Assembly: GCA_017998715.1 (NCBI GenBank) | Contig: JAGOCP010000002.1 | Coordinates: 5,429-69,428 of the forward strand | Length of the DNA: 64,000 nt | Source: Thermoanaerobaculia bacterium | GTDB lineage: Bacteria > Acidobacteriota > Thermoanaerobaculia > Multivoradales > JAGPDF01 | Direction: 5' to 3' | Shown here: positions 3,090-46,000 of the stretch, piece by piece | Numbering within the stretch: position 1 is the first letter of the stretch | Layout of the letters: each line of letters opens with the position of its first letter | Made by a program: the position numbers and the translations under genes | The notes under the pieces: generated by a model | The model's input: the letters and a program-made list of their open reading frames with translations, nothing else | Told to the model about the DNA's origin: nothing | The model's database searches: none

Positions 3090-3491
3090 TCAGTGGTTTC
3101 CCAACCGCTCGAACTGCCGGCTCCACTCCAACTGGAACCCTTCCAGCAGGGTGTCGAGCTGCAGGTCCACTTGCTGGCGTCCGTCGAGGATCGCCTCCAC
3201 GATCTCCGGCGCTAACAGCGTGAGCCGCAGGATGCCGCTGACGTACGACGGTGCGAGCCGCTCGGCCTGGGCGAGGTCCTCGATCGTCGCATGAACGCCC
3301 TCATCGAGCATCTTCCGCCACCGGAACGCCCGCGCGAGCGCCTTCACCATGGCATTGTCGATCCGCGGCCGTGGCGCCCACTCCGCACCGTCCGGCGTCA
3401 CCACCCGCTTCCGCCCGCCGCGCTTCCTGAATGTCAGCGGGATGTGGACGGTGATCGTCTCGCCGTCGGCCGAGATCGTGGCCCGCTTCAC
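3090..3491 (-). CDS. Conserved hypothetical protein co-transcribed downstream of the serine recombinase
   Basis: 133-aa ORF with realistic composition (MKRATISADGETITVHIPL...SYVSGILRLTLLAPEIVEAILDG). It overlaps the recombinase stop by 4 nt. Confidence 0.5.
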   Translation of the reverse strand: MKRATISADGETITVHIPLTFRKRGGRKRVVTPDGAEWAPRPRIDNAMVKALARAFRWRKMLDEGVHATIEDLAQAERLAPSYVSGILRLTLLAPEIVEAILDGRQQVDLQLDTLLEGFQLEWSRQFERLGNH

Positions 3492-5238: not shown

Positions 5239-5307
5239 GCGGTTCTCCGTCGTTCCGGTTTTGCATGACCGCTCCGGTCGGGCGGGATGTGTAGGCAACT
5301 TTCTCTC

Positions 5308-27120: not shown

Positions 27121-28104
27121 ATGCGATCCTGGTACGCGATCCGCGCCCGCGCCGAGGGCGCGGAAGTCTCGATCTATGACGAGATCGGTGCCTACGGCGT
27201 CTCGGCGAAGAGCTTCCTCGACGAGCTCGGCGCGCTGCCCGACGACGGCGCGCTGACCCTGCGGCTGAACAGCCCGGGCGGCTCGGTCTTCGACGCGGTG
27301 GCGATCTACAACGCCCTGAAGCGCCACGCCGGCCCGGTCAGCGTCTGGATCGACGGCATCGCCGCCTCGGCCGCCTCCTACGTCGCCATGGCCGGCGACG
27401 AGGTGGTGATGCCGGAGAACGCCTTCCTGATGATCCACGACCCCTCGGGCGTGGTGTACGGGACGGCGGACGACATGCGGGCGATGGCCGAGGCGCTCGA
27501 CAAGATCAAGGGCAGCCTCGTCGCCGGCTACGTCGCGAAATCCGGCGGCGCCGAGGACGACATCGCCGCGCTGATGGCGAAGGAGACCTGGCTCGCCGCC
27601 GCGGAGGCGGTCGAGCTCGGCTTCGCCGACCGGCTTGCCGAGCCGGTGCGGATCGCCGCGCGGTTCGACATCGCGCGGTTCCGCAACGCGCCTCCGGCAC
27701 TGGTCGACGCCACGGCCGAGATCGGCGAGGCCGAGGACGACACTGCCGATGATGAGGCCGATCCGCCGGCGGGCGATGCCGAGGACGACGGCGCGGGCAT
27801 GGACGCGGTCGATCCCCCGCCGCCCGAAGCACGCGACCCGGTCTCGGCCTCCGCCGCGATCCGCGCCGAGGCGCTCGCGCATGCCGCCGCGGTGATCGAC
27901 CTTTGTGCGTTGGCCGGCCTCCCGCTGCAGGCGCGGCGGTTCTTGGAGGCCGGCGCCAGCCTCGACGAGGTGCGCGCGGCGCTACTGGCCGCAAGGGCCG
28001 ATGCCACCCCGGAGGTCACCGCCCTCCATCCGCAACCGGGCCGCTCCGCCGACGCCCGGCCCTGGGGCGAGGTGATCGCCCGCACCTTCAAGCCGAGAGG
28101 ATAA
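27121..28104 (+). CDS. Head maturation protease, ClpP/S49 family, with a C-terminal scaffold-like acidic/Ala-rich region
   Basis: LRLNSPGGSVFDAVAIYNALKRH...IDGIAASAASYVAMAGDEVVMPENAFLMIHDP is a ClpP-like Ser protease core. Confidence 0.85.
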   Translation: MRSWYAIRARAEGAEVSIYDEIGAYGVSAKSFLDELGALPDDGALTLRLNSPGGSVFDAVAIYNALKRHAGPVSVWIDGIAASAASYVAMAGDEVVMPENAFLMIHDPSGVVYGTADDMRAMAEALDKIKGSLVAGYVAKSGGAEDDIAALMAKETWLAAAEAVELGFADRLAEPVRIAARFDIARFRNAPPALVDATAEIGEAEDDTADDEADPPAGDAEDDGAGMDAVDPPPPEARDPVSASAAIRAEALAHAAAVIDLCALAGLPLQARRFLEAGASLDEVRAALLAARADATPEVTALHPQPGRSADARPWGEVIARTFKPRG

Positions 28105-29811: not shown

Positions 29812-30476
29812 AACTCAAGCTCGACATCCGGCCCGACCTCGTCGCGATGATGAGGACGGAGATCGCTGCCGGCGAGCGGGCGGTGACCGCAGCGATCCGC
29901 GAGGCCGGAACCGGGCTGAAGCTCGGCTGGCGCGGGCAGATCGTCGGCGCCGGGCTCGGACCGCGGCTCGCCAACTCGATCCGCTCGGAGGTGTTTCCGA
30001 AGGCCGGCGCCAGCCTCAACGCCGCGGCGGTGGTCTGGTCGAAGGCGCCGGTGATCGTCGGCGCCCACGACGCAGGTCCGCTGATCCGCTCGAAGAACGG
30101 GCTCTGGCTGGCGATCCCGACGCCGGCCGCAGGGAAGGCGCTTGGCGGGCGGCGCATCACGCCAGCCGCCTGGGAGCGGAAGACCGGGCTGCGGCTGCGG
30201 TTCGTCTACCGCCGGGCCGGCCCGAGCCTGTTGGTGGCCGAGGGGCGGCTGAACACCAAGGGACAAGCGGTGGCGTCGCGGTCGAAGACCGGGCGCGGCC
30301 AGGTCACCGCGCCGATCTTCCTGCTGGTGCCGCAGGTCAAGCTGCCGAAGCGGCTCGACCTGGCGCGGGACGCCGAGCGCGCGCACGACGTGGTGTCGGG
30401 GCTGATCGTGGCGAACTGGGTGGCGAGCGGTCAACGGACAGGGCAGTCTTTCAGGCCGATCGATCTCCGCCCTTGA
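29808..30476 (+). CDS. DUF6441-like phage structural protein (neck region)
   Basis: MKLKLDIRPDLVAMMRTEIAAGERAVTAAIREAGTGLKLGWRGQIVGAGLG... A family found at this position in Rhizobiales prophages (recollected). Confidence 0.5.
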   Translation: MKLKLDIRPDLVAMMRTEIAAGERAVTAAIREAGTGLKLGWRGQIVGAGLGPRLANSIRSEVFPKAGASLNAAAVVWSKAPVIVGAHDAGPLIRSKNGLWLAIPTPAAGKALGGRRITPAAWERKTGLRLRFVYRRAGPSLLVAEGRLNTKGQAVASRSKTGRGQVTAPIFLLVPQVKLPKRLDLARDAERAHDVVSGLIVANWVASGQRTGQSFRPIDLRP

Positions 30477-31149
30477 AAACTGGGGTGCCGTCTGGCGTGT
30501 AGCCAACAATCCCAGGCTCCCACCACCAGATGGGGTTGGCCTTGAAGCTGTCCCGCTCGTCGAGACGCTCGAGGAGCGACGCGACCTTCTCGTACTTCTG
30601 GAGAAACAGGTCGATCCCGAGCGGTCTCGCCTGGACAAAGCGCACATGGGCCGCGAGAAAGATGTCGTGGACTGATAGGAACCCCGGCTGGAACCCGCTC
30701 TCCGGATCGGCGAGTTGGCCATCGAGCCATCCAAGAATGTGGGGGAGTTTCTCGGCCGAGCGCTTGAGATGGGCGTTTGCATCTAAAGCAACCTCCGTCC
30801 ACATCATTTGGGAGACGGTGGTCGCTGCAGTCCCAAAGGTCTGGATCGTAGAGAACACAAGCTTGTCCCGCCACAGGTCGTCCGCGCGGAAAGCTTGACT
30901 GGCCAGAGGAGGCTCAACGGCGGGCCGCTGCGGAAAGGTCGACAACAAATACTCTACGATAGTGCCGCTTTCCCAAAGCTTTAAGTCACCGTCCCAGAAT
31001 GCGGGCACCTGTAATGTCGGGGGCGCAAGTTGCCCGGCACTTGGCGCGACGATTCTTTCATGGCGCTCATAGTCCAGCCCGATTTCGTCGAGGACGATCC
31101 GCACGGCACGGGCGAAGGGCGATCCGGTGGTGTAAAGCAATGCAAGCAT
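30451..31149 (-). CDS. Glutathione S-transferase (cargo gene)
   Basis: N-terminal thioredoxin-like GST domain (MLALLYTTGSPFARAVRIVLDEIGLDYE) and a helical C-domain. Local GC is noticeably lower than in the flanking phage genes. Confidence 0.8.
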   Translation of the reverse strand: MLALLYTTGSPFARAVRIVLDEIGLDYERHERIVAPSAGQLAPPTLQVPAFWDGDLKLWESGTIVEYLLSTFPQRPAVEPPLASQAFRADDLWRDKLVFSTIQTFGTAATTVSQMMWTEVALDANAHLKRSAEKLPHILGWLDGQLADPESGFQPGFLSVHDIFLAAHVRFVQARPLGIDLFLQKYEKVASLLERLDERDSFKANPIWWWEPGIVGYTPDGTPVFKGGDRSA

Positions 31150-31202
31150 GGTCGCCTCCGGTATAGATCACGCCGAACTTAGCGGAACGCGCTGCCGCGC
31201 TG

Positions 31203-31330
31203 CCGATCTTTCTGCTCGCGCCGCAGGTGAAGCAGACCAAGCGGCTCGATCTGGCGCGGGATGCGGAGCAAGTGGTGGATGGTCGCCGGGGGCTGATCGT
31301 GGCGAACTGCGTAGAGGGCGGGTGGGTCGA
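31203..31330 (+). pseudogene. Remnant 3' fragment of a DUF6441-homolog gene (about 77% nt identity to 30312-30430)
   Basis: Translates as PIFLLAPQVKQTKRLDLARDAEQVVDGRRGLIVAN, against PIFLLVPQVKLPKRLDLARDAERAHDVVSGLIVAN in the intact gene. There is no upstream coding continuation. Confidence 0.65.
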
Positions 31331-31389
31331 TGGCCGCGCTGCGGGACCTTTCGGTCACTCGCCGCGCGTCCTCGATCTCCCCTGCGCCC

Positions 31390-32310
31390 TTAGGGGCCAT
31401 CCGTAGAATCAACGAACGACAGCACAGCGTCGATGAACGCCGCGCGGTCCTGAACCGGTCCTCCATGGTTGGTTCCCTCGAGAACCGAACCGGTCGCGTT
31501 CGGCTGGCAGCGCACCACCTCGTCGGCCATCATCGCATCCAGAACATAGGCGTCGCTGCCTTGGATCACCAATGTTGGAACCTCGATGCGCGCAAGCCCG
31601 TCGCAGTCGATGGGTTCCGCTGCAGCGACGGCTTCCAGAAAGGGCGGAAGGGTGCGCGCATTGTCGTCCCACATCTGCTGCGCAAGATCGGAATGTGTCT
31701 CGGCCTCGCCGGGTTCCAGCCGGAACACCGCCTCGATCAGCCGCCGGACGGCATCCTCATTCTTGCCGGCTTGCAGCGCCTCTGCCATTGGGCCGAAGGC
31801 CAAGAATTTCTGTGCGATCGCGGCACGCTCGCCTGACAGGCCCGCATGCAATGACGAAACCGTCGGCTCGAAATGGGTGATGGACCGGAACTTCTCGGGA
31901 AAGCGCATTGCTGCGTGCAACCCGACCAGCCCGCCATAGGACCATGTCACCAGATGGACCGGGCCGGCATCCAAGGCATCGATCACCGCTGCCAGATCCT
32001 CGGCATGGGTCGCGACGCTTAAGCCGGCAGCCTCGTCGGGCCATTCGGCCGGTCCGAAATATCGCTGGTCATAGGCCACGAAGCGATGTCGCTCGGCGGC
32101 GCGATCGCGGATGCCGCCCCAGACCCGATGGTCAGAAACCGCGCCATGCAGGAACAGGACCACCGGCCCGCTGCCTGCCTCTTCGTAAGTCAGCAAAGCT
32201 TCCCCGACAGCGATCTCGTCGCCGCTGGCCGGCAGAGTCGACGGCAGCAACAGCGCGGCAGCGGCGAGGCCAGCGCGAAGATGCGTTTCGATGACGCTTT
32301 GATGTGTCAT
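31390..32310 (-). CDS. Secreted alpha/beta hydrolase (cargo gene)
   Basis: Signal-peptide-like N-terminus, HG oxyanion motif (VLFLHGAVSD), and nucleophile elbow GWSYGG with Ser. Confidence 0.8.
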   Translation of the reverse strand: MTHQSVIETHLRAGLAAAALLLPSTLPASGDEIAVGEALLTYEEAGSGPVVLFLHGAVSDHRVWGGIRDRAAERHRFVAYDQRYFGPAEWPDEAAGLSVATHAEDLAAVIDALDAGPVHLVTWSYGGLVGLHAAMRFPEKFRSITHFEPTVSSLHAGLSGERAAIAQKFLAFGPMAEALQAGKNEDAVRRLIEAVFRLEPGEAETHSDLAQQMWDDNARTLPPFLEAVAAAEPIDCDGLARIEVPTLVIQGSDAYVLDAMMADEVVRCQPNATGSVLEGTNHGGPVQDRAAFIDAVLSFVDSTDGP

Positions 32311-32438
32311 TCTGATAGCCCTTCCCGTGTTGTGACAAGGGAGATCAGGCCCAAACACAGTCTGAATGTCCTGATGGAGGTCTGAATTCTCTCTGAATCG
32401 AGATTCAGGTGGTAGGATGATCTGGTCTGGAGCGTGTC

Positions 32439-34043
32439 ATGGACCTCGGTGGCCACAGGTTTGACCCGGAGAGCGGCGACCTCTTCACGGGCGGCGGAGA
32501 AGCCATCCCGTTGAAGCGGCAGGCCCGCGCGCTGATGCAGGCGCTTGCAGCCGCCGAGGGCCGCGTCGTCTCGAAGGACCATTTGATGGATGCCGTCTGG
32601 CCGGATGTGACGGTCAGCGAGGATTCGCTTTATCAGGCCGTCGCTGAGGCAAGGCGGGCGCTTGGCGCGAATGGGTCCGAGATCATCAGATCGGTGCCGC
32701 GCCAGGGCTATCTTCTGGATGCGACGGGGGCCGGTGCAGGCAAGATCAGGCGATGGCCTGCGATGGCCGGGCTTGCGTCATTCGCCGTGATCTGCGTTGT
32801 CGTCGTCTGGTCGCAACGGCAGATGCCGTCCGACGATACCCGGCATCCGGTGATTGCGGTCCTGCCATTCGAGGCCGTGACCGGTGACGAGACCTGGCAG
32901 CGCCGTGGCGCGGGGCTGTCCGCTGAAATCGCCACGGAGCTTGCGCGCAACGACTGGCTGGATGTCGTCGCGCCAGAGGCGACCGAGACGCTGGCGGGCT
33001 CCACCTTGCCACCGGCGGCCGAATCCCTTGGGGCGAGATTTCTTCTGGCGGGTACGCTGGCAGCCGAGGATGGCGCGCTGAGGGTGTCAGCGCGCATGAT
33101 GGATGCCGAGACAGGCAAACTCATCTGGTCGGATCGCTGGAACCGCGACGAGACGGGCTTTCTGGATCTCGAGGCGGATGTTCTCGACCGGATCGCAGGT
33201 CCTCTGGGCGGTGCGTTGACCGGTGCGATCGCCCGGGCCGAGCTGGCCAGTTCACAGGCAAGGCAACCCGGCTCGCTTGATGCCTACGACCATTTCCTGC
33301 TGGGGCTCGAGGCGAAGCACCATTGGAACCGCGAGGGGTTCACGCTTGCAACGAGGCATTTCAAACGGGCCATCGCGCTCGATCCGGAGTACGCAAAGGC
33401 ATGGTCGTTCCTGTCGCTCAACCTCAGCTTTCTGGCGCTGGAAGCGGCATCGCGGGAAGAACGCCAGACGTTGTGGCAAGAGGCCCGCGACGCGGCAGAG
33501 CGGGCCTATGCGCTGGATCCGGACGATCCGGAGGTTCTGTGGCGCGTCGCGCGAGAGCGGGGCGCGCAGGGTGATCTCGAGAATGCAGCACGAATGCTGC
33601 GCCGGTCGGTGGAACTGGCGCCGGGCAATGCCGACGTGCTGATGGTTGCCGCATGGACCAGTCACTACGCGGGGGTGCGGGGTGACGAACCGTTGACCTG
33701 GGCGCGACGGGCGCATGAGCTGACGCCGATACGGCCCGCGAAATATACCATAAGCCTTGGGCTCGCGGCATTTTCATCCAGGGATTATCGGCTGTGCGTG
33801 GAGACCTTGCGGAATGCGCCGCGCTCGCCCGAGGTCCTGGCCCATCTGGCCGCCGCAGAGGCGCTTCTGGGAAATGTCTCCGAGGCTAGAGAGGTAGCCA
33901 GATTACTTCGGGAGGCGCGTCCCGATTTCGTGATCGATGATATGTTCGGGCCGGTCGGGTTGGACGGATTTGGCGATCTGGAAGATCTTCGGCAAGGTGC
34001 GGCGCTCGCCGGCGTGCCTGTCAGTCGCGCGGAAAGCATCTGA
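32439..34043 (+). CDS. CadC/ToxR-like membrane-anchored winged-helix (OmpR-C type) transcriptional regulator with a C-terminal TPR domain
   Basis: N-terminal trans_reg_C-like domain (HRFDPESGDLF...VVSKDHLMDAVWPDVTVSEDSLYQAVAEARRAL...VPRQGYLL), a single TM helix (MAGLASFAVICVVVVW), and TPR-like repeats to the C-terminus. Confidence 0.75.
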   Translation: MDLGGHRFDPESGDLFTGGGEAIPLKRQARALMQALAAAEGRVVSKDHLMDAVWPDVTVSEDSLYQAVAEARRALGANGSEIIRSVPRQGYLLDATGAGAGKIRRWPAMAGLASFAVICVVVVWSQRQMPSDDTRHPVIAVLPFEAVTGDETWQRRGAGLSAEIATELARNDWLDVVAPEATETLAGSTLPPAAESLGARFLLAGTLAAEDGALRVSARMMDAETGKLIWSDRWNRDETGFLDLEADVLDRIAGPLGGALTGAIARAELASSQARQPGSLDAYDHFLLGLEAKHHWNREGFTLATRHFKRAIALDPEYAKAWSFLSLNLSFLALEAASREERQTLWQEARDAAERAYALDPDDPEVLWRVARERGAQGDLENAARMLRRSVELAPGNADVLMVAAWTSHYAGVRGDEPLTWARRAHELTPIRPAKYTISLGLAAFSSRDYRLCVETLRNAPRSPEVLAHLAAAEALLGNVSEAREVARLLREARPDFVIDDMFGPVGLDGFGDLEDLRQGAALAGVPVSRAESI

Positions 34044-34089
34044 TATTGCGTGATAGACCTCCTCTGCACTCGCACAATACCCGAGAGCC

Positions 34090-34512
34090 ATGCCCACCAC
34101 GCGCGAAACCATCCTCTCGGCCCTGCACGCACTCTTGCAGACCCAGCCTGCGCCCGTTCTGCGCGGCGAGGTCTTGCCCGAGCGCGTGCCGGCCGCGGGT
34201 CTCCTCATCCTGCGCGACGGCGACCCGGGCGAACCGGCGGTGACGCTCTCGCCGCTCCGCTACCACTACCAGCACCGCGCCGAGGTCGAGGCGGTCGTCC
34301 AGGTCGGCACTGGGCGCGACGCCGCCTTCGATGCGCTCACCGCCGGCGTTGGCACCGCGCTCACGGCCGACCGCACGCTCGGGGGCTTGTGCGACTGGGC
34401 CGAAGCCGAGGCGCCGCGGCCTATCGACCTCGCGGTCGACGGCGCGGCGACGCTGAAGGCCGCGGCCATCCCGATCGTGCTGCACTACGCGAGCGCGGAC
34501 CCGCTCGGCTAG
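34090..34512 (+). CDS. Putative tail terminator / head-tail connector protein (GTA gp8-like position)
   Basis: 140-aa ORF directly upstream of the major tail gene. Weak recollected similarity to DUF3168-type proteins. Confidence 0.45.
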   Translation: MPTTRETILSALHALLQTQPAPVLRGEVLPERVPAAGLLILRDGDPGEPAVTLSPLRYHYQHRAEVEAVVQVGTGRDAAFDALTAGVGTALTADRTLGGLCDWAEAEAPRPIDLAVDGAATLKAAAIPIVLHYASADPLG

Positions 34513-34537
34513 GCCCGCTGGTCGAAGGCCGGGACCG

Positions 34538-34948
34538 CTACGCCACGGCCTCGGCGGAGACCTCGGCCAGGACCTCGCCCATCGTGACCACGGGCGTTGC
34601 GCCTCCGATCATGTTCGCGAGATTCTCCTTGATCCACGCCAGCGAGCGGTCGTGCGCCGCCTTGGCGTTGTCGGCGGTGTCGAAGAGGCTGATCGAGCCG
34701 CCGCCACCGCCCTCGAGTTGCATGATGTAGTAGGCCCTGAACCCGGGCTGCTGCTTCAGGATCGGCGCGAGGCCGGTCTCGGCGAGCCGCCGGGCCTCCT
34801 CGACATTCTGCATCTGCGGGAAACTGCGGATCACGGCATACATGACGCTCTCCTGCTGAACGCAGGCGACGAGAAGGCCGCGCCTGCCCGCCAAGTCTAC
34901 ACCCGACTCGGCCGGCTCCCTACCGACAACTCCGAAGGACACCGACAT
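34538..34948 (-). CDS. ABM-domain (antibiotic biosynthesis monooxygenase-like) protein (cargo gene)
   Basis: MYAVIRSFPQMQNVEEARRLAETGLAPILKQQPGFRAYYIMQLEGGGGGSISLFDTADNAKAA is a typical ABM ferredoxin-like fold sequence. Confidence 0.65.
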   Translation of the reverse strand: MSVSFGVVGREPAESGVDLAGRRGLLVACVQQESVMYAVIRSFPQMQNVEEARRLAETGLAPILKQQPGFRAYYIMQLEGGGGGSISLFDTADNAKAAHDRSLAWIKENLANMIGGATPVVTMGEVLAEVSAEAVA

Positions 34949-35881
34949 GGCACGTGCACAGGGGGCGCGGGCGCAGATGGCGCTCGCGTTCGAGACGGTC
35001 TACGGCATCCGGCGGGCGGCTACACCCGGGTGCCGTTTGTCAGCACCTCCCTCGGCTCCGAGCAGCCGCTGATCAGCTCGGAGCTCCTCGGCTACGGCCG
35101 CGACCCGCTGGCGCCGATCAAGGACGCGGTCACCGCCGATGGCGACGTCGTCGTGCCGATCGACGCCGAGGCCTTCGGCTTCTGGCTGAAGGCGGCCTTC
35201 GGCGCCCCGACCACGAGCGGCACCGGCCCCTGGACGCACGAGTTCCGCTCCGGCGGCTGGACGCTGCCGTCGCTGTCGATCGAGACGGCGATGCCCGAGG
35301 TGCCGCGGTACGCGATGTACTCCGGCTGCGTGCTCGACCCGCTCAGCTGGCAGCTGCAGCGCTCGGGGCTGCTGACGGCGACCACGCGGCTGGTGGCGCA
35401 GGGCGAGGCGGTGGCGACGACGACGGCCGCCGGCACCCCGGCGGAGCTGGCCCTGAAGCGCTTCGGCCACTTCAACGGCAGCATCACCCGCAACGGCACG
35501 GCGCTCGGCAACGTGGTCTCGGCCGAGATCACCTATGCCAACAACCTCGACCGCATCGAGACCATCCGCAGCGACGGCCGCATCGACGGGGCCGACCCGT
35601 CGATCGCGGCACTGACCGGCCGGGTCGAGGTGCGCTTCGCCGACAGCACGCTGGTCAACCAGGCGATCGCCGGCGACCCCTGCGAGCTCGAGTTCGCCTA
35701 TGCGCTGCCGTCGGGCGAGAGCTTCACCTTCACGATCCACGCCGTCTACCTGCCGCGGCCGCGGATCGAGATCGCTGGCCCGCAGGGCGTGCAGGCGACA
35801 TTCGACTGGCAGGCCGCCCGGGACCCGGGGCTAGGCCGGATGTGCACCGCCACCCTCATCAACGACATCGAGGAGTACTGA
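34947..35881 (+). pseudogene. Major tail protein, reading frame broken after about 21 codons by a 1-nt deficit in a C run near 35008-35015
   Basis: N-terminus MARAQGARAQMALAFETVYGI is in frame 0 (stop at 35067). The remaining 290 aa (GGYTRVPFVSTSLGSEQPL...TATLINDIEEY) are in frame +2. Inserting one C (ATCCGG to ATCCCGG) restores ...YGIPAGGYTRVPF... Confidence 0.6.
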
Positions 35882-35883
35882 CC

Positions 35884-36321
35884 ATGCTGAGGCTCGACCT
35901 CACCGCGGAGCCGCGCTGGCTCGATCTCGGCCACGGCGTGCGCATCCGCGTGGCCTCGCTTACCACTGCGTTGATGGTGGCGGCGCGCAGCGACGCCGCC
36001 ATCGAGGCGCTGCCCGCCACCGCCTCCGACGAGGAACGGGCGCTGGTCTTCGCCAAGGCAATCGCGCGGCGGGCGGTGACCGACTGGGAGGGCGTCGGCG
36101 ACGCCGACGGCAGCCCGACGCCGGTCACGCCCGAGGGCATCGACGCGCTGCTCGAGGTCTGGCCGATCTTCGAGGCATTCCAGGCGGCCTTCGTCTCGAA
36201 AGGCCTGCTGCTGGATTCGGAAAAAAACGTCTCCGCGCCCTCGCCGACTGGCACTTCGGCGGGGGCGATCGCTACTGCGCGGCCTGCGGCCAAGCGTGCC
36301 CGGACTGCCCGGCGCGGCTGA
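35884..36321 (+). CDS. Tail assembly chaperone (lambda G / GTA gp10 analogue), zero-frame product
   Basis: 146-aa acidic protein between the major tail and tape-measure genes. Contains the slippery heptamer A_AAA_AAC at 36222-36228. Confidence 0.7.
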   Translation: MLRLDLTAEPRWLDLGHGVRIRVASLTTALMVAARSDAAIEALPATASDEERALVFAKAIARRAVTDWEGVGDADGSPTPVTPEGIDALLEVWPIFEAFQAAFVSKGLLLDSEKNVSAPSPTGTSAGAIATARPAAKRARTARRG

Positions 36322-36548
36322 ACCGGCCGGCGACCTTCGAGGGCTGGCAAGTCTGGGACATGGTGGGCCGCCTCGGCGGCCAACTCCGCGTCATCCCCGG
36401 CGCGGTGATCGGCTGGGACATGGGTGCGGCGCTGGCTCTCGCGGCGGCGCTCGGGATCGAGCCAATGACCGCGGCCGAGCTGCTGCCGGAGATCGAGGCG
36501 GTGATGGTCCGCCGAACCAACGAAGCGATCGGAGACGGCCATGGCTGA
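35884..36548 (+). CDS. Tail assembly chaperone -1 frameshift fusion product (lambda GT / GTA gp10.1 analogue), predicted by a -1 slip at 36222-36228
   Basis: The -1 frame is open from the heptamer to 36548 and encodes ...KKRLRALADWHFGGGDRYCAACGQACPDCPARLNRPATFEGWQVWDMVGRLGGQ...GDGHG. It ends 7 nt into the tape-measure gene, as in G/GT arrangements. Confidence 0.55.
36222..36228 (+). promoter_or_regulatory. -1 programmed ribosomal frameshift slippery heptamer AAAAAAC (X_XXY_YYZ)
   Basis: Zero-frame codons are GAA AAA AAC (E K N). Re-pairing in the -1 frame gives AAA AAA and continues into a 106-codon open extension. Confidence 0.6.
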
Positions 36549-38697
36549 AAAGCGTGTCAGCGTCCGGCTCGCCGTCGTCGGCGGGCGCGAGGTGCGGGCC
36601 GAGCTCGAGGGCGTCGGCGAGGCCGGCAACCGCGGCTTCGGCCGGCTCGGGCGCGAGATGGAAGCGGCGAACGCCCGGCTCGCCGCCTTCTCGGCACGAG
36701 TGAAGATCGCCACAGCGGCGGCCATCGCCGCGGCGGCGGCCTCCGGCATCGCCATGGTCCGCTCCGGACTCGCCACCGTCGATGCGCAGGCAAAGCTCGC
36801 GCAGTCGCTCGGCACCACGGTCGCCTCGATCCAGGTGCTGGAGCGCGCGGGCGAGCTTGCCGGCGTCGCGATGTCCGGCATAGAGCAGGCGACCAAGGAC
36901 CTGACCCGGCGGCTGAGCCAGGCCGCCTCCGGCGCCGGGCCGGCTGCGGAGGCGCTCGGCCGGCTCGGGCTCTCGGCCTCGGAGCTGTTGGCGCTGCCGC
37001 TCGACGAGCGGGTCGGCCGGATCAATGCGGCGATCGCCGACTTCGTGCCCGTCGCCGAGCGCGCCGCGGTCGCCGGCCAGCTTTTCGGCGAGGAGGGCTC
37101 GATCGCAATTCGCGCATCGACACCGCGACGCTGCGCCAGGCGACCCAGGACGTCCGCGACTTCGGCGTGGTGGTGTCGGAGGCCGACGCCGACCGCATCG
37201 AGCGGGCGAACGATGCCATTTCCCGGCTCGGGCTGATCTGGCGCGGGCTCTCGAACCAGCTGGCAGCCGCGGCCGCGCCGGCGCTCGAGGCGGTGGCGAA
37301 CGCGATGGCGGCGCTCGCCCGCACCACCGGTCCGCTCGGGATCGCGATCCGCGGCCTCTTCGACAACGTCGGCCGGCTCGCGGCCTATGCCGCGACCTTC
37401 GCCGGCATCATGGCCGGGCGCTGGGTCGCCGGGCTGGTCGCCGCCGCCGTCTCGGTGCGCGGCCTCGCCACCGCGCTCGTGGTGCTGCGCGGCGCGCTGA
37501 TCCGGACCGGCATCGGCGCGCTGATCGTCGCCGCCGGCGAGATGGTCTACCAGTTCGGCCGGCTGGTATCTGGCGCCGGTGGCTTCGGCGAGGCGCTGTC
37601 GCTGCTCGGCGACGTCGCGTCCGAGGTCTGGGAGCGGATCAAGCTCGGCGGCCGGTCGCTCGCCCTATCGCTGCAGTCGGTCTGGGCGACGATCGAGGCC
37701 GGCTGGCTGACGGCGCTCTCGCGGATCCAGCGCAGCTGGGCCGACTTCCTGCATGCGGCGACCGGTGGCATCGCCCGGATACCCGGCATGGAGGATGCGA
37801 CGCTCGCCTTGAGCGAGGCGGCGATCCGTGCCGGCTCGGCCTTCTACGAGACCTCGGCCGCGGCCGGCGAGGCGAGCGCCCGGGCCGACGGTCTCGCCGC
37901 CTCTGCCGCTGCAGCAGCCAACGCCGCCACCGCGCCGCTCGCCTCGCTCCAGGCGCTGCGGGACGCGGTGAAGGGCTCGGCCGAGGCGGCGGAGACGGCG
38001 CTCGGCGGGGCCACGGTCGCGGCCGAGGAGTTCGGCGGCGCGGTCGGCCAGGCTGGCGGCGCCAGCGCGGCGGCGGCGCCGGCGGTGGCGGAGGCGCCCG
38101 AGGCGGCGAAGTCGGGCTGGGAGCGCGCGACCGAAGCGGTGCGCGACTATGCCGACAAGGCGAAGCAGACCGGCGACGGGATCGGCGAGGCGCTCATCAG
38201 TGGCTTCCGCGGCGCCGAGGATGCTGTGGGCGAGTTCGTCAAGACCGGCAAGCTCGGCATGCGCGACCTCGTCACCTCGATCCTCGCCGATCTCGCCAAG
38301 GTCTCGGTGCGGCGCTTCGTGCTGGCGCCGGTCGCAAATGCGCTATCCGGCGTGCTCGGCAGCCTCGGGCCCGCCTTCGCCAGCGTGCTGCACGCCGGCG
38401 GTGTGGCTGGAGCCTCGGCGCCGCAGCGAATGGTGCCGGCACTCGCCTTCGCCGGGGCGCCGCGTCTCCATTCCGGTGGCGTCGCCGGCCTCCGCCCCGA
38501 TGAGGTGCCGGCGATCCTGCAGCGTGGCGAGCGGGTGCTGAGCCGGGCGGAGACCCGGGCCTTCGAGCGGGCGCGGGCCGACGGCGGCGTCACCGTCAAC
38601 ATCATGACCAGCGACGCCGAGAGCTTCCGCCGCTCGCGCACCCAGGTCGCGAGCGACATCGCCCGGGCGGTCGCCTTCGGACGTAGAGGGATGTGAG
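36541..38697 (+). pseudogene. Tail tape measure protein with an apparent -1 frame break near 37100-37120
   Basis: Frame 1 ORF 36541-37236 (...AGQLFGEEGSIAIRASTPRR...) and frame 0 ORF continuing to 38696 (...RIDTATLRQATQDVRDFGVVVSEADADRIERAND...). One extra C near CGCGCATCGAC reconnects them as ...EEGSIAIRAIDTATLRQ... Ala/Gly/Leu-rich helical composition is typical of tape-measure proteins. Confidence 0.65.
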
Positions 38698-38698: not shown

Positions 38699-39325
38699 AT
38701 GGCCTTCCACGAGGTCCGGTTTCCCGACGACATCAGCCGCGGCGCCCGCGGCGGACCGGAGCGCCGGACGCAGGTGGTCGAGCTCGCCTCCGGCGACGAG
38801 GAGCGCAACGCGTCCTGGGCGGACTCGCGCCGCCGCTACGACGCCGCCTACGGCATCCGCCGCGCCGACGACCTCGCTGCGGTCGTCGCCTTCTTCGAGG
38901 CCCGCAACGGCCGGCTGCACGGCTTCCGCTGGAAGGACTGGGGCGACTATCGCTCCGGCTTGCCGTCGGCGCCGGTGACCCCGATCGACCAGGCGCTCGG
39001 CACCGGCGACGGGGAAACTTCGACGTTCCAGCTGGTGAAGCGCTACGAGAGCGGCCCGCAGTCCTGGGTGCGGCGGATCGTCAAGCCGGTCGCCGGCACG
39101 GTGCGGGTCGCGCGCGGGGGCGTCGAGGCCCCCTCGGGCTGGTCAATCGATGTGACCACCGGCGTCGTCACCTTCGCCACGGCGCCAGCCGCCGGCGTTC
39201 TCGTGACCGCCGGCTTCGAGTTCGACGTGCCCGTCCGCTTCGACACCGACCGGCTCGACGTCACCTGGGACCTCGACCGCCTCGGCTCGATCGCCTCAAT
39301 CCCGCTCGTGGAGGTGCGGCGATGA
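38699..39325 (+). CDS. Distal tail protein (DUF2460 / GTA gp12-like)
   Basis: MAFHEVRFPDDISRGARGGPERRTQVVELASGDEERNASW...GFRWKDWGDY matches the TIGR02217/DUF2460 family found in GTAs and related prophages. Confidence 0.85.
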   Translation: MAFHEVRFPDDISRGARGGPERRTQVVELASGDEERNASWADSRRRYDAAYGIRRADDLAAVVAFFEARNGRLHGFRWKDWGDYRSGLPSAPVTPIDQALGTGDGETSTFQLVKRYESGPQSWVRRIVKPVAGTVRVARGGVEAPSGWSIDVTTGVVTFATAPAAGVLVTAGFEFDVPVRFDTDRLDVTWDLDRLGSIASIPLVEVRR

Positions 39326-39675
39326 ATGAGGAGCCCGGTTTCGTCGCCGGCGTCTTGCGCGACCTCGCCGCGTCGACCGCAGCGATCCTCGCCGCCTGGG
39401 GTGCGCTCGGCGGCGCCACCAATGCGCTCACAACCCGCATGCGGCTGCGCGATGCGGTCCGCCACATCCTGCTCGGCGGCCTCATCGCCGCCGGCATGGG
39501 CAGCTTCTCGATGGCGCTCGTCGCCCGCTGGCTCGGGCTGCCGCCCGAGGCGGTGCCGGCCGGCGGCGCCGCCGGCTCGGCCGCCTACCTCGTCGGCGTG
39601 TTCGGCCCGGCGGTGATCGAAGTGACGCTCGCCCGCATCCGCGGCCTTCGATCCGGGGACGGCCCCGATGCGTGA
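39322..39675 (+). CDS. Putative holin (two predicted TM helices)
   Basis: 117 aa. Hydrophobic stretches ILLGGLIAAGMGSFSMALVARWLGL and AYLVGVFGPAVIEV. Directly upstream of the endolysin gene. Confidence 0.5.
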   Translation: MNEEPGFVAGVLRDLAASTAAILAAWGALGGATNALTTRMRLRDAVRHILLGGLIAAGMGSFSMALVARWLGLPPEAVPAGGAAGSAAYLVGVFGPAVIEVTLARIRGLRSGDGPDA

Positions 39676-39798
39676 GCTCATCGGCCTCGCGGCTCGGCTG
39701 CGCTGCGGCGACGCCGATCCGTGCCGCCTCTTCCGTCACCGGATGCGGGTCGGCCTCGCCGTCGCCGCCCTGGTCCTGCTCCTCTCGCTGCTCAGGTA
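39667..39798 (+). CDS. Small single-TM membrane protein (43 aa; holin partner or spanin-like)
   Basis: MRELIGLAARLRCGDADPCRLFRHRMRVGLAVAALVLLLSLLR. Below the ORF-track size cut-off, found by hand translation. Confidence 0.3.
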
Positions 39799-39806
39799 AT
39801 CTCTCC

Positions 39807-40466
39807 ATGATCATGACCGACCGGGGGCTATTGGCCCTCACCCGGCACGAAGGCATCGTGCCGGCTCCCTATCTCGACGTGAAACAGGTCTGGACCTTCG
39901 GCGTCGGCCACACGGCGGCGGCGGGCGCGCCCGATCCCGCCCGGCTGCCGCGCGGCATGCCGGCCGATCTCGACGCCGGCATCCGCGAGGCGCTTCGGCT
40001 GTTCCGCGTCGACCTCGGCCGCTACGAGGCGGAGGTCCTGCGCGCCGTGACCGTGCCGCTCGCGCCCCACGAGTTCGATGCGCTGGTGTCCTTCCACTTC
40101 AACACCGGCGCGATCGCCCGGGCGGCGCTGACAAGGGCCCTCAACGCCGGCGACCGGGCCGGTGCGGGCGCGGCGTTCATGAACTGGCTGCGACCGGCCA
40201 GCCTGCGCCAGCGTCGCGAGGCCGAGCGCGATCTCTTCCTGCACGGGCGCTACCCCGAGGGGCCAATTCCGGTCTGGGCCGCCGATGCTCACGGCGAGGT
40301 CGACTTCTCGCGGCCGGTGCACCGGTTGACCGAGCCGCAAGCGCTGGCGCTGCTGCGGTCCGCGCCTGCAGCCGAACCGGCGCCAAAGGTCGCGGCCGCC
40401 TCCCTGCCGGGCCGCTGGCTCGCCGCGCTGCTCGCTTCCCTTTCCGCCGCCTTCCAACGGAGCTGA
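39807..40466 (+). CDS. Endolysin, GH24 phage lysozyme family
   Basis: LALTRHEGIVPAPYLDVKQVWTFGVGHT matches the EG..L.AY.D..G.WTIG.GH lysozyme motif with the catalytic Glu. Confidence 0.8.
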   Translation: MIMTDRGLLALTRHEGIVPAPYLDVKQVWTFGVGHTAAAGAPDPARLPRGMPADLDAGIREALRLFRVDLGRYEAEVLRAVTVPLAPHEFDALVSFHFNTGAIARAALTRALNAGDRAGAGAAFMNWLRPASLRQRREAERDLFLHGRYPEGPIPVWAADAHGEVDFSRPVHRLTEPQALALLRSAPAAEPAPKVAAASLPGRWLAALLASLSAAFQRS

Positions 40467-40470
40467 TCCC

Positions 40471-40707
40471 ATGCGCTACGTGCTTCCGACGTCCCTGACC
40501 TGGTGGGCGGGCCTCGCCGCGATCCTGATCGGGCTCCTCGCGCTGGCGCTGCCCGAGCACGGGCCGCTCGGCGAGCTCGCCGGAGTGATCGCCCAGCTGA
40601 TCGGCGCCAACGACGCGGCGCCGGCGACGCTGATCACCCTCGGCCTCGGGCTCATCGGCCTGCGCGACCGGCTGGAGCGGGCGATCCTGAGCCCCGAGAA
40701 GCGATGA
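40471..40707 (+). CDS. Small membrane protein (lysis-associated?)
   Basis: 78 aa with a strongly hydrophobic N-terminal half. Confidence 0.4.
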   Translation: MRYVLPTSLTWWAGLAAILIGLLALALPEHGPLGELAGVIAQLIGANDAAPATLITLGLGLIGLRDRLERAILSPEKR

Positions 40708-41588
40708 AGACGCTGTCGGCGGCGCTGCAGGCGCATCTCGACGGCGGCGCGACGACGCTCGCCTGGTGCTGGCGGATCGAACGCAGCGATGGCGTCGTCT
40801 TCGGCTTCACCGACCACGACCGCGAGCTGGAGTTTGGCGACGTCACCTACGAGCCCGACTCCGGCTTCGCCGCGTCGGAGATCCGATCCGGCACCGACCT
40901 CGCCGTCGACGCCCAGGACGCCGAGGGCGGGCTGACCTCGGACACCATCACCGAGACCGACATCCTCGACGGCCGCTGGGACAACGCCGCCGTCGAGGTC
41001 TGGCGGGTGAACTGGAGCACGGTCGGCCAGCGGGTGCTGATGCGTCGCGGCGCCATCGGCCAGGTTCGGCGCGGCCGGCTTGCCTTCGTCGCCGAGGTCC
41101 GATCGCTGGCGCACGTGCTGAACCAGACGGTCGGGCGCACCTTTCAGCACGCCTGCGACGCCGAGCTCGGCGACGCCCGTTGCGGCGTCGATCTCGACGA
41201 TTCGGCGTTCAAGGCGACCGGGTCGGTCACCAGCGTGACCGGCGACCGGAGTTTCACAGCCTCCGGACTCGGCGGCTTCGCCGCCGGCTGGTTCGCCCTC
41301 GGCCGGCTGACCTGGGCCAGCGGCCCGAATGCCGATCGCATCGCGGAGGTGACAGGCCACGATGTCGTCGCCGGTGCGCGGCGGCTGACGCTGCTCGAGG
41401 CGCCGGTGCGACCCATCGCCGTGGGCCACGACTTCGTCGTTCGCGCCGGCTGCGACAAGCGGCTGGAGACCTGCCGCGACCGCTTCGCCAACGTCGTGAA
41501 CTTCCGCGGCTTCCCGCACATCCCCGGCCAGGACACCGTGGTGCGCTACCCGAACCGCGGAGACGCCAACGCGGGAGATGTCCTGTGA
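40704..41588 (+). CDS. Tail hub protein (DUF2163 + phage BR0599-type C-domain; GTA gp13-like)
   Basis: MKTLSAALQAHLDGGATTLAWCWRIERSDGVVFGFTDHDRELEFGDVTYEP is the DUF2163 signature. C-terminal Cys-rich RFANVVNFRGFPHIPG matches the BR0599 type. Confidence 0.85.
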   Translation: MKTLSAALQAHLDGGATTLAWCWRIERSDGVVFGFTDHDRELEFGDVTYEPDSGFAASEIRSGTDLAVDAQDAEGGLTSDTITETDILDGRWDNAAVEVWRVNWSTVGQRVLMRRGAIGQVRRGRLAFVAEVRSLAHVLNQTVGRTFQHACDAELGDARCGVDLDDSAFKATGSVTSVTGDRSFTASGLGGFAAGWFALGRLTWASGPNADRIAEVTGHDVVAGARRLTLLEAPVRPIAVGHDFVVRAGCDKRLETCRDRFANVVNFRGFPHIPGQDTVVRYPNRGDANAGDVL

Positions 41589-42019
41589 CTGCTGCCGATC
41601 CTGCGGTCGTCGTTGCCGCCGCCCGCGGCTGGCTCGGCACGCCCTATCATGATCAGGCGAGCGTGCGCGGCGTCGGCAGCGACTGCCTCGGACTCGTCCG
41701 CGGGGTCTGGCGCGAGCTCTACGGCCCCGAGCCGATGCCGATCCCGCCCTACAGCCGCGACTGGGGCGAGACGGGCACCCTGGAGGTGTTGGCAGAGGCG
41801 GCCCGGTCGGCCATGCCGGAACTGTCGCCGACCGAGCTTCTGCCCGGCGCGCTGCTGCTCTTCCGCATGCGCACCGGCGCTCTCGCCAAGCACTGCGGCA
41901 TCGTCACCGAGCCCGACCGGTTCATCCATGCCTACGAGCGCACGGGCGTCGTCGAGGTTCCGCTCGACCCCGCCTGGCGCCGGCGCGTCGCCTTTGCCTT
42001 CCTGTTCCCGGAGCAGTGA
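41585..42019 (+). CDS. NlpC/P60 family cell-wall peptidase (GTA gp14-like)
   Basis: GWLGTPYHDQASVRGVGSDCLGLVRGVWREL has the catalytic Cys. His follows in AKHCGIV...FIHA. Confidence 0.85.
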   Translation: MTAADPAVVVAAARGWLGTPYHDQASVRGVGSDCLGLVRGVWRELYGPEPMPIPPYSRDWGETGTLEVLAEAARSAMPELSPTELLPGALLLFRMRTGALAKHCGIVTEPDRFIHAYERTGVVEVPLDPAWRRRVAFAFLFPEQ

Positions 42020-42024
42020 TTGGC

Positions 42025-42984
42025 TCAGGCGAGCTGCTCGAGGAATCCCTCCACCGCCGCGAAGACTTCTTCGTTGCGCCCGACCCAGACGTGGCCGCCG
42101 CTGGGGAAGCTGACCAGCTCTGCGCCGGGGACCGACGCCGCGATGTGCCGCGCGGCGTCGAGGGTCTCGAAGCGGTCGTCCGCAAGCGAAAGCGCCAGCG
42201 TCGGCGCCCGAATCGTCGCGAGCGCCATCGGCTCCGGCGAGCCCGCGAGCTTGCCGTCGTTCAGGAGCCCGCGGGCGCGGTCGCTGACCGGGAGGATGTG
42301 ATGCAGGATCGCGCGGACCCGCGCCTGCTCGGCCGGGCTGGCGGCGTGCACCAACTTGGGGTCGGTCGCGAGCAAGGTGCCGATCATCGCGTCCTCGGCC
42401 GTCATCATGCCGAGCCAGAACAGGAAGTCCGAGCGCAGGCCGTAGGCGATGATCGCCTCCGCGAGCGCGTTCGGCGGCCGCGGCGGCGGGCGGTTCGGCG
42501 CGAAGGCCGCCGGCACCAGCGCGACCAGCGCCGCGCAGCGGTCTGGATGGCGGATGGCGAAGGCCATCGCCGAGAGCGCGCCGGCGGAGCCGCCGATGAT
42601 CGGCGCCCGGTCGATCCCGAGATGGTCGAGGAGGTCGACGAACGCGTCCGCCTGGTTCTCCGAGGACGGGTTATCGGGGAAGTCGGAGCGCAGGTAGCCG
42701 AAGCGCGAGGGCGCGATGACCTGCCAACCGGCGGCGACCAGCGGCTCCGCGAACGCCAGCCCCTGGTCGAAGCCGCCGCCGGTGCCGTGGATCATCAGGA
42801 CCAGGGGGCCGGACCCGGCGACCGCATACTCCATCGTTCCGAAGCGGCTCGCGAAGACCTCGCTGCGGCCACGGGTTCGGGCCCGCGCCGCGGCGATGTC
42901 GCGGGCGTAGGCGCGCCACGTTACGCCGCCCGCGAGGGCGGCAACGCCGAGCAGCCCGAGCCCGAGTACCGTCCGCCGCCGCAT
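42025..42984 (-). CDS. Secreted alpha/beta hydrolase (moron, antisense inside the tail module)
   Basis: Tat/Sec-like signal MRRRTVLGLGLLGVAALA, HG motif (LVLMIHGTGGG), nucleophile GGSAG. Confidence 0.8.
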   Translation of the reverse strand: MRRRTVLGLGLLGVAALAGGVTWRAYARDIAAARARTRGRSEVFASRFGTMEYAVAGSGPLVLMIHGTGGGFDQGLAFAEPLVAAGWQVIAPSRFGYLRSDFPDNPSSENQADAFVDLLDHLGIDRAPIIGGSAGALSAMAFAIRHPDRCAALVALVPAAFAPNRPPPRPPNALAEAIIAYGLRSDFLFWLGMMTAEDAMIGTLLATDPKLVHAASPAEQARVRAILHHILPVSDRARGLLNDGKLAGSPEPMALATIRAPTLALSLADDRFETLDAARHIAASVPGAELVSFPSGGHVWVGRNEEVFAAVEGFLEQLA

Positions 42985-43034
42985 GCCCGCACTCCGTCGT
43001 CACCTGTCCACATCAACCATAGCCGAGCAAGCCC

Positions 43035-46000
43035 ATGGCCTCGATCATCCTCGCCGCCGCCGGGACTGCGATCGGCGGCTCGGTCGGCGGCTCGATCCTC
43101 GGCGTCTCGGCGGCTGCCATCGGCGGCGCCGTTGGCTCGATCGCCGGCGCGGCGATCGACAGCTGGCTCATCGCGTCGATGGCGCCGACGCAGCGGATCG
43201 CCGGCCAGCGCCTCGACACCTTGCAGATCACCTCCTCGACCGAGGGCGCGGTGATCCCGCGCGTCTACGGCGCCATGCGAACGGGGGGCAACATCATCTG
43301 GGCGACCGACTTCCGCGAGGAGACCGCGACCACCCGCCAGGGCGGCGGCGGCAAGGGCGGCGGCGGTGGCGGCGGCACCGAGGTCACCGAGTACTTCTAC
43401 TTCGCCTCGTTCGCCGTGGCGCTCTGCGAGGGTCCGATCACCGGCATCGGCCGCATCTGGGCCGACGGCAAGATCCTGAGCCGCGACGGCGTCACCCTGC
43501 GGCTGCACAGGGGCGGCGAGGACCAGGAGCCCGACCCGTTCATCGCGTCGAGGATGGGTACGGCGAACACGCCGGCCTATCGCGGCACGGCCTACGTCGT
43601 CTTCGAGGAGCTGCCGCTCGAGCGCTTCGGCAACCGGCTGCCGCAGCTCTCCTTCGAGGTGTTCCGGCCGATCCTCGACGGCGAGTCGGCCGAAAGCCTC
43701 GTCCGCGCCGTAACGTTGATCCCGGCTTCGGGCGAGTTCGCCTATGCGACCGAGATCGTCCGCCACGAGGGCGGGGACGGTGAGACTTGGGCGGAGAACG
43801 TCAACGCCGAGCCCGATGTCGCCGACCTCTCGGTCGCGCTCGACCGGCTGGAGGCCTGCGCGCCGAAGGTCGAGTCGGTCTCGCTGGTCGTCGCCTGGTT
43901 CGGCGACGATCTGCGCGCCGGCCATTGCCGCATCCGGCCCGGCGTCGAGGTGAGCGCCAAGGCGACGACGCCGGAGAACTGGTCGGTCGACGGGGTGAGC
44001 CGCGCCTCGGCGCATCTGGTCAGCCGCGATGCCGAGGGACGGCCGGCCTATGGCGGCACCCCGTCCGACAGCGCCGTGGTGCAGGCGATCCGCGAGCTGA
44101 AGGCGCGCGGCTACCGGGTGACCTTCTATCCGTTCATCCTGATGGACGTGCCGAGGGACAACGATCTGCCGGACCCGTACTCGGACGGCGCTTCCGCCAC
44201 CGGCCAGCCGACCTATCCCTGGCGCGGGCGGATCACCTGCTCGGCGGCGGCGGGCTATGCCGGGAGCCCGGACAAGACAGCCGCGGCAGGCACGCAGGTC
44301 GCCGCCTTCTTCGGCGGGGCGCAGCCGTCGGACTTCGATGTAGACGACGAGCGCGTCGACTGGGACGGCGATCCGGGCGACTGGGGCCTGCGCCGGATGA
44401 TCCTGCACTACGCGCACCTCTGCGCCGCGGCGGGCGGGGTCGACGCCTTCCTGATCGGCTCGGAGCTGCGTGGGATCACGCAAATCCGCTCCGGTGCGTC
44501 CTCGTATCCGGCGGTCGCAGAGCTGATCGACCTCGCTACCGACGTTCGCTTGATCCTCGGCTTCGGCACCAAGCTCAGCTACGCCGCCGACTGGTCGGAA
44601 TACTTCGGGCACCACCCGCAGGACGGCTCGGGGGACGTCTACTTCCACCTCGACCCGCTCTGGGCGGACGACGCGATCGACTTCGTCGGCATCGACAACT
44701 ACATGCCGCTCGCCGACTGGCGCGACGGCCTCGACCATCTCGACGCCGAGAGCGCGGACGCGATCACCGACCTCGCCTACCTTCGCGGCAACGTCGAAGG
44801 CGGCGAGGGTTTCGACTGGTTCTACGCCAGCACCTCCGACCGCGAGGCGCAGGTCCGGACGCCGATCACCGACGGGGCGGCCGGCAAGCCGTGGGTGTTC
44901 CGCACCAAGGACATCCGGAGCTGGTGGTCGAACCCGCACCGCCACCGCCCGGGCGGGGTCGAGAGCAGCTCGACGACGGCGTGGATCCCGGAATCGAAGC
45001 CGATCCGCTTCACCGAGATCGGCTGCCCGGCGGTCGATCGGGGTCCGAACCAGCCGAACGTCTTCTACGACCCGAAGTCGGCCGAGAGCTTCCTGCCGTA
45101 CTTCTCCCGCGGTTGGCGCGACGACGCGGTGCAGCGCCGTTTCCTCGAGGCGGCGCTCGGCTACTGGGCTGAGCCCGCGAACAACCCGAGCTCGAGCATC
45201 TATGGTGGCCGGATGATCGCCACCGCCGAGACCGCGGCCTGGACCTGGGACGCCCGGCCGTACCCGGCGTTCCCGGCGCGCAGCGACGTCTGGACCGACG
45301 CCGACAACTGGCGGCTCGGCCACTGGCTGAACGGCCGCCTCGGTGCGGTCTCGCTCGGCAGCCTCGTCCGCGAGCTCTGCCGCCGCGCCGGGCTGCCGGA
45401 CAGCCAGATCGACGCATCAGATCTCTCCGACGTCGTCCACGGATACTTCGTCACCGCGATCGAGAGCCCGCGCGCCTCGATCGCTCCCTTGGCCCGGCAC
45501 TTCGGCTTCGACGCGGTCGAGAGCGAGGGCGTCATCCGCTTCCAGCCGCGCGATCGCCGGCCGGTGGCGACGTTCGGTCTCGACGATCTCGTCGCCGCCT
45601 CCGACGCCGATGCCGAGGTCATCGAACTGGTGCGCGCGCAGGAGACCGAGCTGCCGGAGGCGCTGAAGTGGCAGCTGGTACGCTCCGACGAGGAGTATGA
45701 CGCGATGAGCGTCGAGGCGCGGCGTGCGACCGGCGCGGCCCTGCGCGTGACCGCGGAGACCTTCGCAATCGCCACGCCGGCCGGAGACGCCGAGCGTCGC
45801 TGCCGTCGGGCGCTGCTCGAGGAGTGGGTCGGGCGTGAGACCGCGTCGTTCCGGCTGCCGCCGTCGCGGCTCGCGCTCGATCCCGGCGACGTCGTCCGGC
45901 TCGACCACGACGGCCGGCTCTCCGCCCTGCGGCTGACCAGCGTCGCCGACGCCGGCCCCCGCGCGGTCGAGGCGGTGCGCACCGACGCCAGCGCCTATGG

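Follow-up and report, generated by a model that had tools for sequence, protein, structure and literature searches.

Defective prophages with small lesions in virion genes are familiar from the cryptic prophages of Escherichia coli K-12, and laboratory lambda PaPa carries a 1-bp frameshift in the side tail fiber gene stf. Here we describe a prophage with broken tail genes in a 64-kb stretch of contig JAGOCP010000002.1 (assembly GCA_017998715.1; 70% GC, zero Ns), which is called the window throughout. The element is a temperate siphovirus prophage of ~46 kb from an Amaricoccus-like alphaproteobacterial host (70% GC), and the genes for its tail tube, or major tail protein, and for its tape-measure protein each change reading frame partway along.

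Among cultured phages, its nearest relatives belong to the Rhodobacter capsulatus RcC cluster of siphoviruses (RcDormio, RcOceanus, RcBaka, and others), with tube proteins 56 to 60% identical to that of the window. Phages of this cluster have distal tail genes in common with RcGTA, the gene transfer agent (GTA) of R. capsulatus (PMC8601537). A first-pass annotation of the window, made from the letters alone, had ascribed both frame changes to systematic undercalling of C runs in the assembly, with each gene 1 nucleotide (nt) short; were the lesions real, it expected a tail-defective prophage that might still act as a GTA-like particle producer. Comparison with the DNA of orthologues leads elsewhere. 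Both deletions are probably genuine, recent, and loss-of-function, which would place the prophage at an early stage of ordinary prophage decay.

Results

Relatives were collected by a scan with the tube protein, one genome per species, which gave at least 531 of them; the best 80 loci (L001 to L080) were fetched. The closest of these 80 are Amaricoccus metagenome-assembled genomes (MAGs), at 91 to 93% amino acid identity in the tube protein. Two closer contigs were added, L083 from a JGI metagenome (tube protein 96% identical) and L086 from the Amaricoccus MAG GCA_046348915.1.

The tube gene opens with the ATG at 34947 on the plus strand. Its 5' part (34947-35007; MARAQGARAQMALAFETVYG...) is in frame 0 and encodes the N terminus MARAQGARAQMALAFETVYGI..., of which residues 1 to 20 are 100% identical to L083 and L086 and nearly invariant among 80 homologues. 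Frame 0 then runs to a stop at 35070-35072, and the protein continues in frame 2 from 35009 to 35881 (PAGGYTRVPF...IEEY and stop), where the GC content of third codon positions (GC3) is 0.97. The switch shows in three-frame translation, and the GC3 frame plot changes phase at the same place. PF18906 (Phage_tube_2) spans the join: once a base is added, residues 6 to 290 match the whole profile (1 to 266 of 266, E = 8e-57). DNA alignments place the lesion at 35007-35009, around a single T at 35008. The window has TACGGCA-T-CCGGCGGGCGGCTAC where L083 has TACGGCA-CGACG-CCGGCCGGCGGCTAC; in place of the 5 nt found in relatives (CGACG, CGGCG, or CGGCC) there is only this T, a net loss of 4 nt with adjacent substitutions.

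The tape-measure gene opens with the ATG at 36541, also on the plus strand, and runs in frame 1 to 37109, ending in ...GEEGSIA; residues 1 to 190 of its product are 96% identical to L086. The remainder (37110-38696; GC3 of 0.93), with a lambda-type C-terminal domain, is in frame 0 and continues as ...IDTATLRQATQDV..., and here too three-frame translation and a phase change in the GC3 plot mark the switch. PF09718 and phrog_8462 span the join. The repaired protein carries PF09718 and matches phrog_8462 over residues 6 to 717 (profile 2 to 672 of 672, E = 1e-150). According to DNA alignments to 13 loci, L083, and L086, the lesion lies at 37107-37110, where relatives read GCC ATG TCG CGC ATC GAC and the window reads GCA AT- TCG CGC ATC GAC. 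What the window has lost here is one G, the last base of a conserved Met codon. It would stand between 37109 and 37110, with a T on each side, and it is adjoined by a C>A change at 37107 that turns the Ala codon GCC into GCA. The tape-measure homologues displayed have a residue at every query position, with no gaps, and mostly read AMSRID or AMARID, some distant ones differing.

The frame changes themselves, from 0 to 2 in the tube gene and from 1 to 0 in the tape-measure gene, are features of the sequence well outside what chance would give. They lie where the first-pass annotation had put them, and translations, GC3 plot, and full-length profile matches bear out its identification of both genes. 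Its account of the lesions as one missing C each does not survive alignment, in which a net 4 nt are gone from the tube gene and the lone G of a Met codon from the tape-measure gene. The window letters are CATCCGG at the tube lesion and GCAATTCG at the tape-measure lesion, and the alternative, non-lesion letters at the two sites are ACGNCGCCGG and GCCATGTCG. Adding one C formally restores the frame and the full-length profile match in each case, but it leaves the tube protein one residue short and gives the tape measure IRAID rather than the ancestral AMSRID (...SIAIRAIDTAT... versus the ...SIAMSRIDTAT... that matches orthologues). In the tube protein this repair reads YGIPAGGYT where relatives have YGT[A/P]P[A/V/P][S/G/I]G[Y/F]T, and it needs a one-residue gap in 80 of 80 tblastn alignments, the homologues being one codon longer. 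Its length, 311 amino acids (aa), occurs in none of the best 120 protein hits, which all have 312 to 315 aa except three (two long fusions and one partial sequence).

Relatives read both genes in a single frame. This holds for 82 of 82 related tube genes, while the 78 related tape-measure genes comprise 63 that are intact, 11 that run off their contig, and 4 that are short, so that 63 of the 67 assessable are intact; none of those examined shares the lesion of the window. Homologues with the same split genes, which the first-pass annotation had named as the finding that would overturn its view in favor of an unusual mode of expression, were not among them, and the comparison it had proposed, a search of orthologous prophages for the missing C, places the lost bases elsewhere than in the C run. 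Rescue of the tube gene by an alternative start was considered and rejected: the only in-frame start past the lesion, GTG 35030, is predicted to be nonfunctional, as it would remove ~28 near-invariant N-terminal residues inside PF18906 and has no evident Shine-Dalgarno sequence.

Between the two lesions lies a genuine programmed frameshift, in the tail assembly chaperone gene G (35884-36321, plus strand) with its -1 extension GT (to 36548; phrog_313). Its slippery heptamer, A_AAA_AAC at 36222-36228, is intact, as the first-pass annotation had said, and a joined G/GT gene with a frameshift is likewise annotated in RcDormio. No X_XXY_YYZ heptamer, homopolymer, or slippery run was found at 35000-35020 or 37100-37120.

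Exact-protein look-ups led to three contigs that we take as pieces of the same strain. L084 (GCA_020047415.1, JAHZTL010456822.1, 1,300 nt) is identical to window positions 35583 to 34284 at 1,300 of 1,300 nt, without gaps, and includes the tube lesion; the gene caller was likewise forced to start the tube gene there at GTG 35030. L082, from the same assembly (JAHZTL010054598.1), equals window 30527-34131 (3,605 nt), and L081, a Logan contig from SRR11088434, equals window 34001-34994 (994 nt), both with 0 mismatches and 0 gaps. GCA_020047415.1 consists of more than 450,000 contigs and is presumably short-read based; with a 1.3-kb contig there against the 64-kb window, L084 clearly comes from a different assembly. 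L081, a short-read contig, ends at window position 34994, 13 nt before the tube lesion. Because a 43-nt stretch common to related prophages begins at that point, the break is most likely a graph branch from coresident relatives and not caused by the lesion.

Elsewhere in the window no further frameshift turned up. In a tblastn comparison of 2,093 open reading frames (ORFs) from 80 related loci, no multiply supported frame switch appeared beyond those at ~35000 and ~37110, and gene by gene against L083 and L086 the other structural genes are full length and free of stops. Ten host genes in the window have their Pfam domains covered in full. Of C or G runs, the window contains 15 that are 6 nt long, 53 of 5 nt, and 310 of 4 nt, the long ones in in-frame genes: all 15 runs of 6 are in frame, and no frame break occurs at runs of 6 and 5 in the genes checked. 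At neither lesion is a run one unit longer in the orthologues, as undercalling of a homopolymer would have it.

The broken genes have hardly diverged. At positions invariant in at least 20 homologues, window-specific changes number 2 of 155 in the tube gene, 0 of 121 in the tape-measure gene, and 4 of 1,280 in other genes. With no excess of changes at invariant positions, long-standing pseudogenes were rejected. Templated mutagenesis from a quasi-palindrome or repeat was also rejected as the origin of these complex lesions, as nothing beyond chance-level 7- to 8-mers lies nearby.

Pfam scans give the prophage an extent of approximately 3090 to 49285, not placed to the base, with a large serine recombinase module at one end and DUF2793/DUF6127 at the other. 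Host-type genes lie on either side, including a GntR regulator and a D-lactate dehydrogenase at 1-2529, and no tRNA was found in the flanks. ARAGORN calls an 82-nt tRNA-Gly(GCC) at 27603-27684, inside the head protease gene, which is probably a false positive. The gene order begins with the serine recombinase (3488-4843) and its DUF2924 partner (4792-5298) and an HTH repressor-like gene. Replication genes follow (AAA_24, helicase, PD-(D/E)XK, and AAA_25, the last primase/helicase-like), then a ParB-like/N6-N4 methylase gene. The head genes encode a lambda gpA-type terminase, a gpW-like protein, portal, ClpP-type protease, decoration protein, and gpE-type capsid; after the capsid come head-tail attachment, DUF6441, terminator, tube, G/GT, and tape measure. 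The terminator gene (34090-34512, plus strand) is intact, matching phrog_4204 over its full length (E = 8.6e-39), and its exact protein was found in two other public assemblies. The distal tail genes (38699-47012, plus strand) are assigned by Pfam as DUF2460, orf117, lysozyme, a Gp84_N/BR0599 hub, NlpC/P60, and a 1,325-aa GTA_TIM/Phage-tail_3/Rcc01698_C host-specificity protein, with DUF2793 and DUF6127 beyond. They are all intact, with zero stops and zero frame changes in gene-by-gene tblastn, and a cargo gene on the minus strand (42025-42984) breaks into their run. Genes for integrase, repressor, replication, head, and lysis functions appear intact as well. The element thus combines a lambda-type head module with an RcGTA-like tail tip, and its gene order from terminase to host-specificity protein is that of an RcC-like siphovirus prophage when set beside RcDormio, L083, and L086.

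Among the best 80 of at least 531 relatives, identity in the tube protein is 83% or more in genomes of Rhodobacterales, Hyphomicrobiales, and Geminicoccaceae; the head modules of the same elements are far more divergent. By these comparisons the tail module appears unusually conserved and widespread. In L083, an IS110-family transposase lies between the GT chaperone and tape-measure genes (11698-12726), which is another route by which the tail module gets disturbed.

Three fixed junctions in the virion module serve as hotspots for cargo, one following the DUF6441 gene, one following the terminator, and one preceding the host-specificity gene. The inserts of the window at these places (30430-34090, 34512-34947, and 42020-43032) carry a GST-like gene, two alpha/beta-hydrolases, an OmpR/TPR regulator, and a small ORF. 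The first, of lower GC, lies between the DUF6441 gene and the terminator and holds the GST-like gene, an alpha/beta-hydrolase, and the OmpR/TPR regulator; it was delimited by composition, Pfam, and synteny breaks against L002, L006, and L083. The small ORF (34538-34948, minus strand; GC3 of 0.92) lies between the terminator and the tube gene, its start overlapping the tube ATG; L003 has this ORF, L001, L006, and L083 lack it, and an exact 101-aa version is called in two other assemblies. At the same junctions relatives (L083, L086, and the P0002 contig) have HEPN_Swt1, AAA_15/DUF3696, SNase, ABM, and a LysR-led island. Because relatives hold different cargo at the same three junctions, we rejected the lower-GC inserts as signs of decay. 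Inside the first insert, 31202-31318 is a 117-nt diverged copy (~78% identical) of the 3' end of the DUF6441 gene, probably the scar of an earlier recombination that brought cargo in. The alpha/beta-hydrolase at 42025-42984 (minus strand) is 100% identical in protein to that of L086 (11235-12194), with the flanking phage genes at 83 to 98%, which suggests recent exchange of this gene alone.

Outside the prophage, a host HAD-family hydrolase gene (55483-56505, minus strand) is split by an in-frame TAG at 55879-55881. The alignment to 4ovy_A, a homologue of solved structure (310 aa; E = 8e-85), runs straight through the stop and shows Gln at that place, so the stop looks like a CAG>TAG nonsense mutation; this would be a third gene lesion in the window, a substitution and not an indel.

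Discussion

Both tail genes bear the marks of pseudogenes, with full-length colinearity to their families across the joins and lesions that are absent from orthologues. The complex 4-nt net loss, 20 codons into the tube gene, and the 1-nt loss with its neighboring substitution, 190 codons into the tape-measure gene, would each inactivate the gene they strike. A tube protein cut after 20 residues is predicted to be unable to polymerize, and a tape measure split at residue 190 would be unable to template a tail. Since tube and tape-measure proteins are essential, the predicted consequence is loss of tail assembly, and induction would yield at most tailless, noninfectious heads. The first-pass annotation was right in its fallback that real lesions make the prophage tail-defective. 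As the broken genes are without measurable drift and the rest of the element is intact, the lesions are taken to be recent.

That both lesions are systematic undercalling of C runs, the prophage being intact, is very unlikely. Both do shorten the sequence, the genome has 70% GC, and one C formally repairs each; however, orthologue alignments put the lost bases outside C runs, one lesion is 4 nt long, and the one-C tube repair is shorter than all but three of the best protein hits. Moreover, a second assembly has the very same tube lesion, the longer C and G runs that should be the first victims are in frame, and no other frameshift was found in the 64 kb, as far as the rest of the structural module and the tested host genes show. 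It is possible, if unlikely, that only the tube lesion is real and that the tape-measure lesion is a residual consensus error, such as a long-read error surviving polishing. A second record exists only for the tube lesion, a substitution and a 1-nt deletion within 3 nt resemble an imperfectly polished long-read consensus, and L086 has a similar substitution plus deletion frameshift and a second frame difference, which would be in keeping with MAG assemblies prone to error. Nevertheless, neither the remaining structural genes nor the tested host genes yielded another frameshift, ~5.2 kb of the window is base-perfect against contigs of other assemblies, and after the loss of the tube gene a further, neutral hit to the tail module is what biology would lead one to expect. 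A programmed explanation, in which both genes are expressed through -1 ribosomal frameshifting or transcriptional slippage as in G/GT, draws on the fact that all three frame changes within 2.2 kb go -1. Its probability is practically negligible: we rejected it for want of slippery motifs at either site and in view of single-frame relatives, and the window is also without residues that relatives conserve (the Thr/Ala-Pro position of the tube protein and the Met of the tape measure), which therefore points to deletion and not to alternative decoding.

We thus favor two genuine, recent lesions, and several observations weigh against doing so. We infer the independence of the two assemblies only from their very different contiguity (64 kb and 1.3 kb). 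Neither exact-protein look-ups nor lesion-pattern scans of IMG/VR and JGI metagenomes returned a second record of the tape-measure lesion, and it is from context that we infer it to be genuine. IMG/VR scans for strain-specific 31-mers and a literature search on the assembly accession numbers likewise returned nothing. Metagenome records of this gene family with frameshifts (L086, L001, P0130, P0133, P0135, P0255, and P0003/P0256) show that public data contain assembly errors in high-GC genes of this kind with some frequency. The two lesions, finally, are separated by only 2.1 kb within a phage coding sequence of ~40 kb, which is mildly unexpected under random decay; by our own estimate such spacing would arise by chance roughly 10% of the time.

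The tape measure of L086 bears its own -1 frameshift (ATTTCCCGGCTC > ATTCCCC-GCTC) with a substitution, ~110 nt downstream of the lesion in the window (L086 6390-6440, equivalent to window ~37219-37227), and its N-terminal fragment of 231 aa has the same length as that of the window. At ~15940-16090 of L086 the C terminus of the host-specificity protein is in another frame than in the window and other relatives, and its tube gene is intact. Such lesions could be assembly noise in high-GC MAGs, ordinary decay (short tape-measure ORFs make up 4 of 67), or, least likely, a hotspot. The window and L086 do have different -1 lesions, each with a nearby substitution, but we consider it very unlikely that tape measures of related Amaricoccus prophages are hit repeatedly and independently. 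If true, this could reflect a local mutational hotspot or host-level selection for tailless elements that keep heads, lysis, and cargo genes, in place of neutral decay or assembly noise.

With two genuine lesions as the probable reading, both genes should be recorded as pseudogenes of a tail-defective prophage, neither silently repaired nor read as evidence that the assembly is poor. They further illustrate that a frameshift repair guessed from the sequence by itself can err as to where the lesion lies and how large it is, and that it takes DNA from orthologues to see which bases were lost. Biologically, the case captures the opening step of prophage decay in a very widespread, highly conserved alphaproteobacterial phage lineage. 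It is a further example of a well-known phenomenon and opens no new question.

Set against known systems, the prophage most resembles the RcC cluster, with which it shares the gene order TerS, TerL, gpW-like, portal, head, head-tail attachment, two minor tail genes, tube, G/GT, tape measure, and the four distal tail genes that RcGTA also has. The capsid-protease of the RcC phages, which are functional and free-living, is fused, whereas in the window the capsid is of the lambda gpE type, protease and decoration protein have genes of their own, and tube and tape measure are broken. The tube gene of the RcC phages is also ~110 residues longer, that of RcDormio (L087, 8959-10230) matching in two pieces around an inserted segment. 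The programmed -1 frameshift of G/GT, present here as well, has a slippery site, while the two lesions have none and are not conserved in relatives.

The likeness to RcGTA lies in homologues of its distal tail genes g12 to g15 (DUF2460, Gp84_N/BR0599 hub, NlpC/P60, and GTA_TIM/Rcc01698_C). These are not diagnostic of a GTA, because true phages have them too (PMC8601537). RcGTA is a head-tail cluster of ~15 kb, whereas the window has a 46-kb prophage with serine recombinase, HTH, helicase/primase, methylase, and a lambda E-type capsid. The compact cluster without integration, regulation, and replication genes that characterizes a GTA is not what is found, and the genes that a GTA would need, tube and tape measure, are those broken here. 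A particle without them has no tail and therefore cannot deliver DNA, which leaves the suggested GTA-like particle producer, in a full prophage with integrase, repressor, and replication genes, without support.

The comparison returns to the cryptic prophages. Like them, the element is a resident temperate genome in which small mutations have cost tail genes their function while the remainder is still readable; unlike those named at the outset, its decay is very early, with only two lesions found in the structural module and no large deletions.

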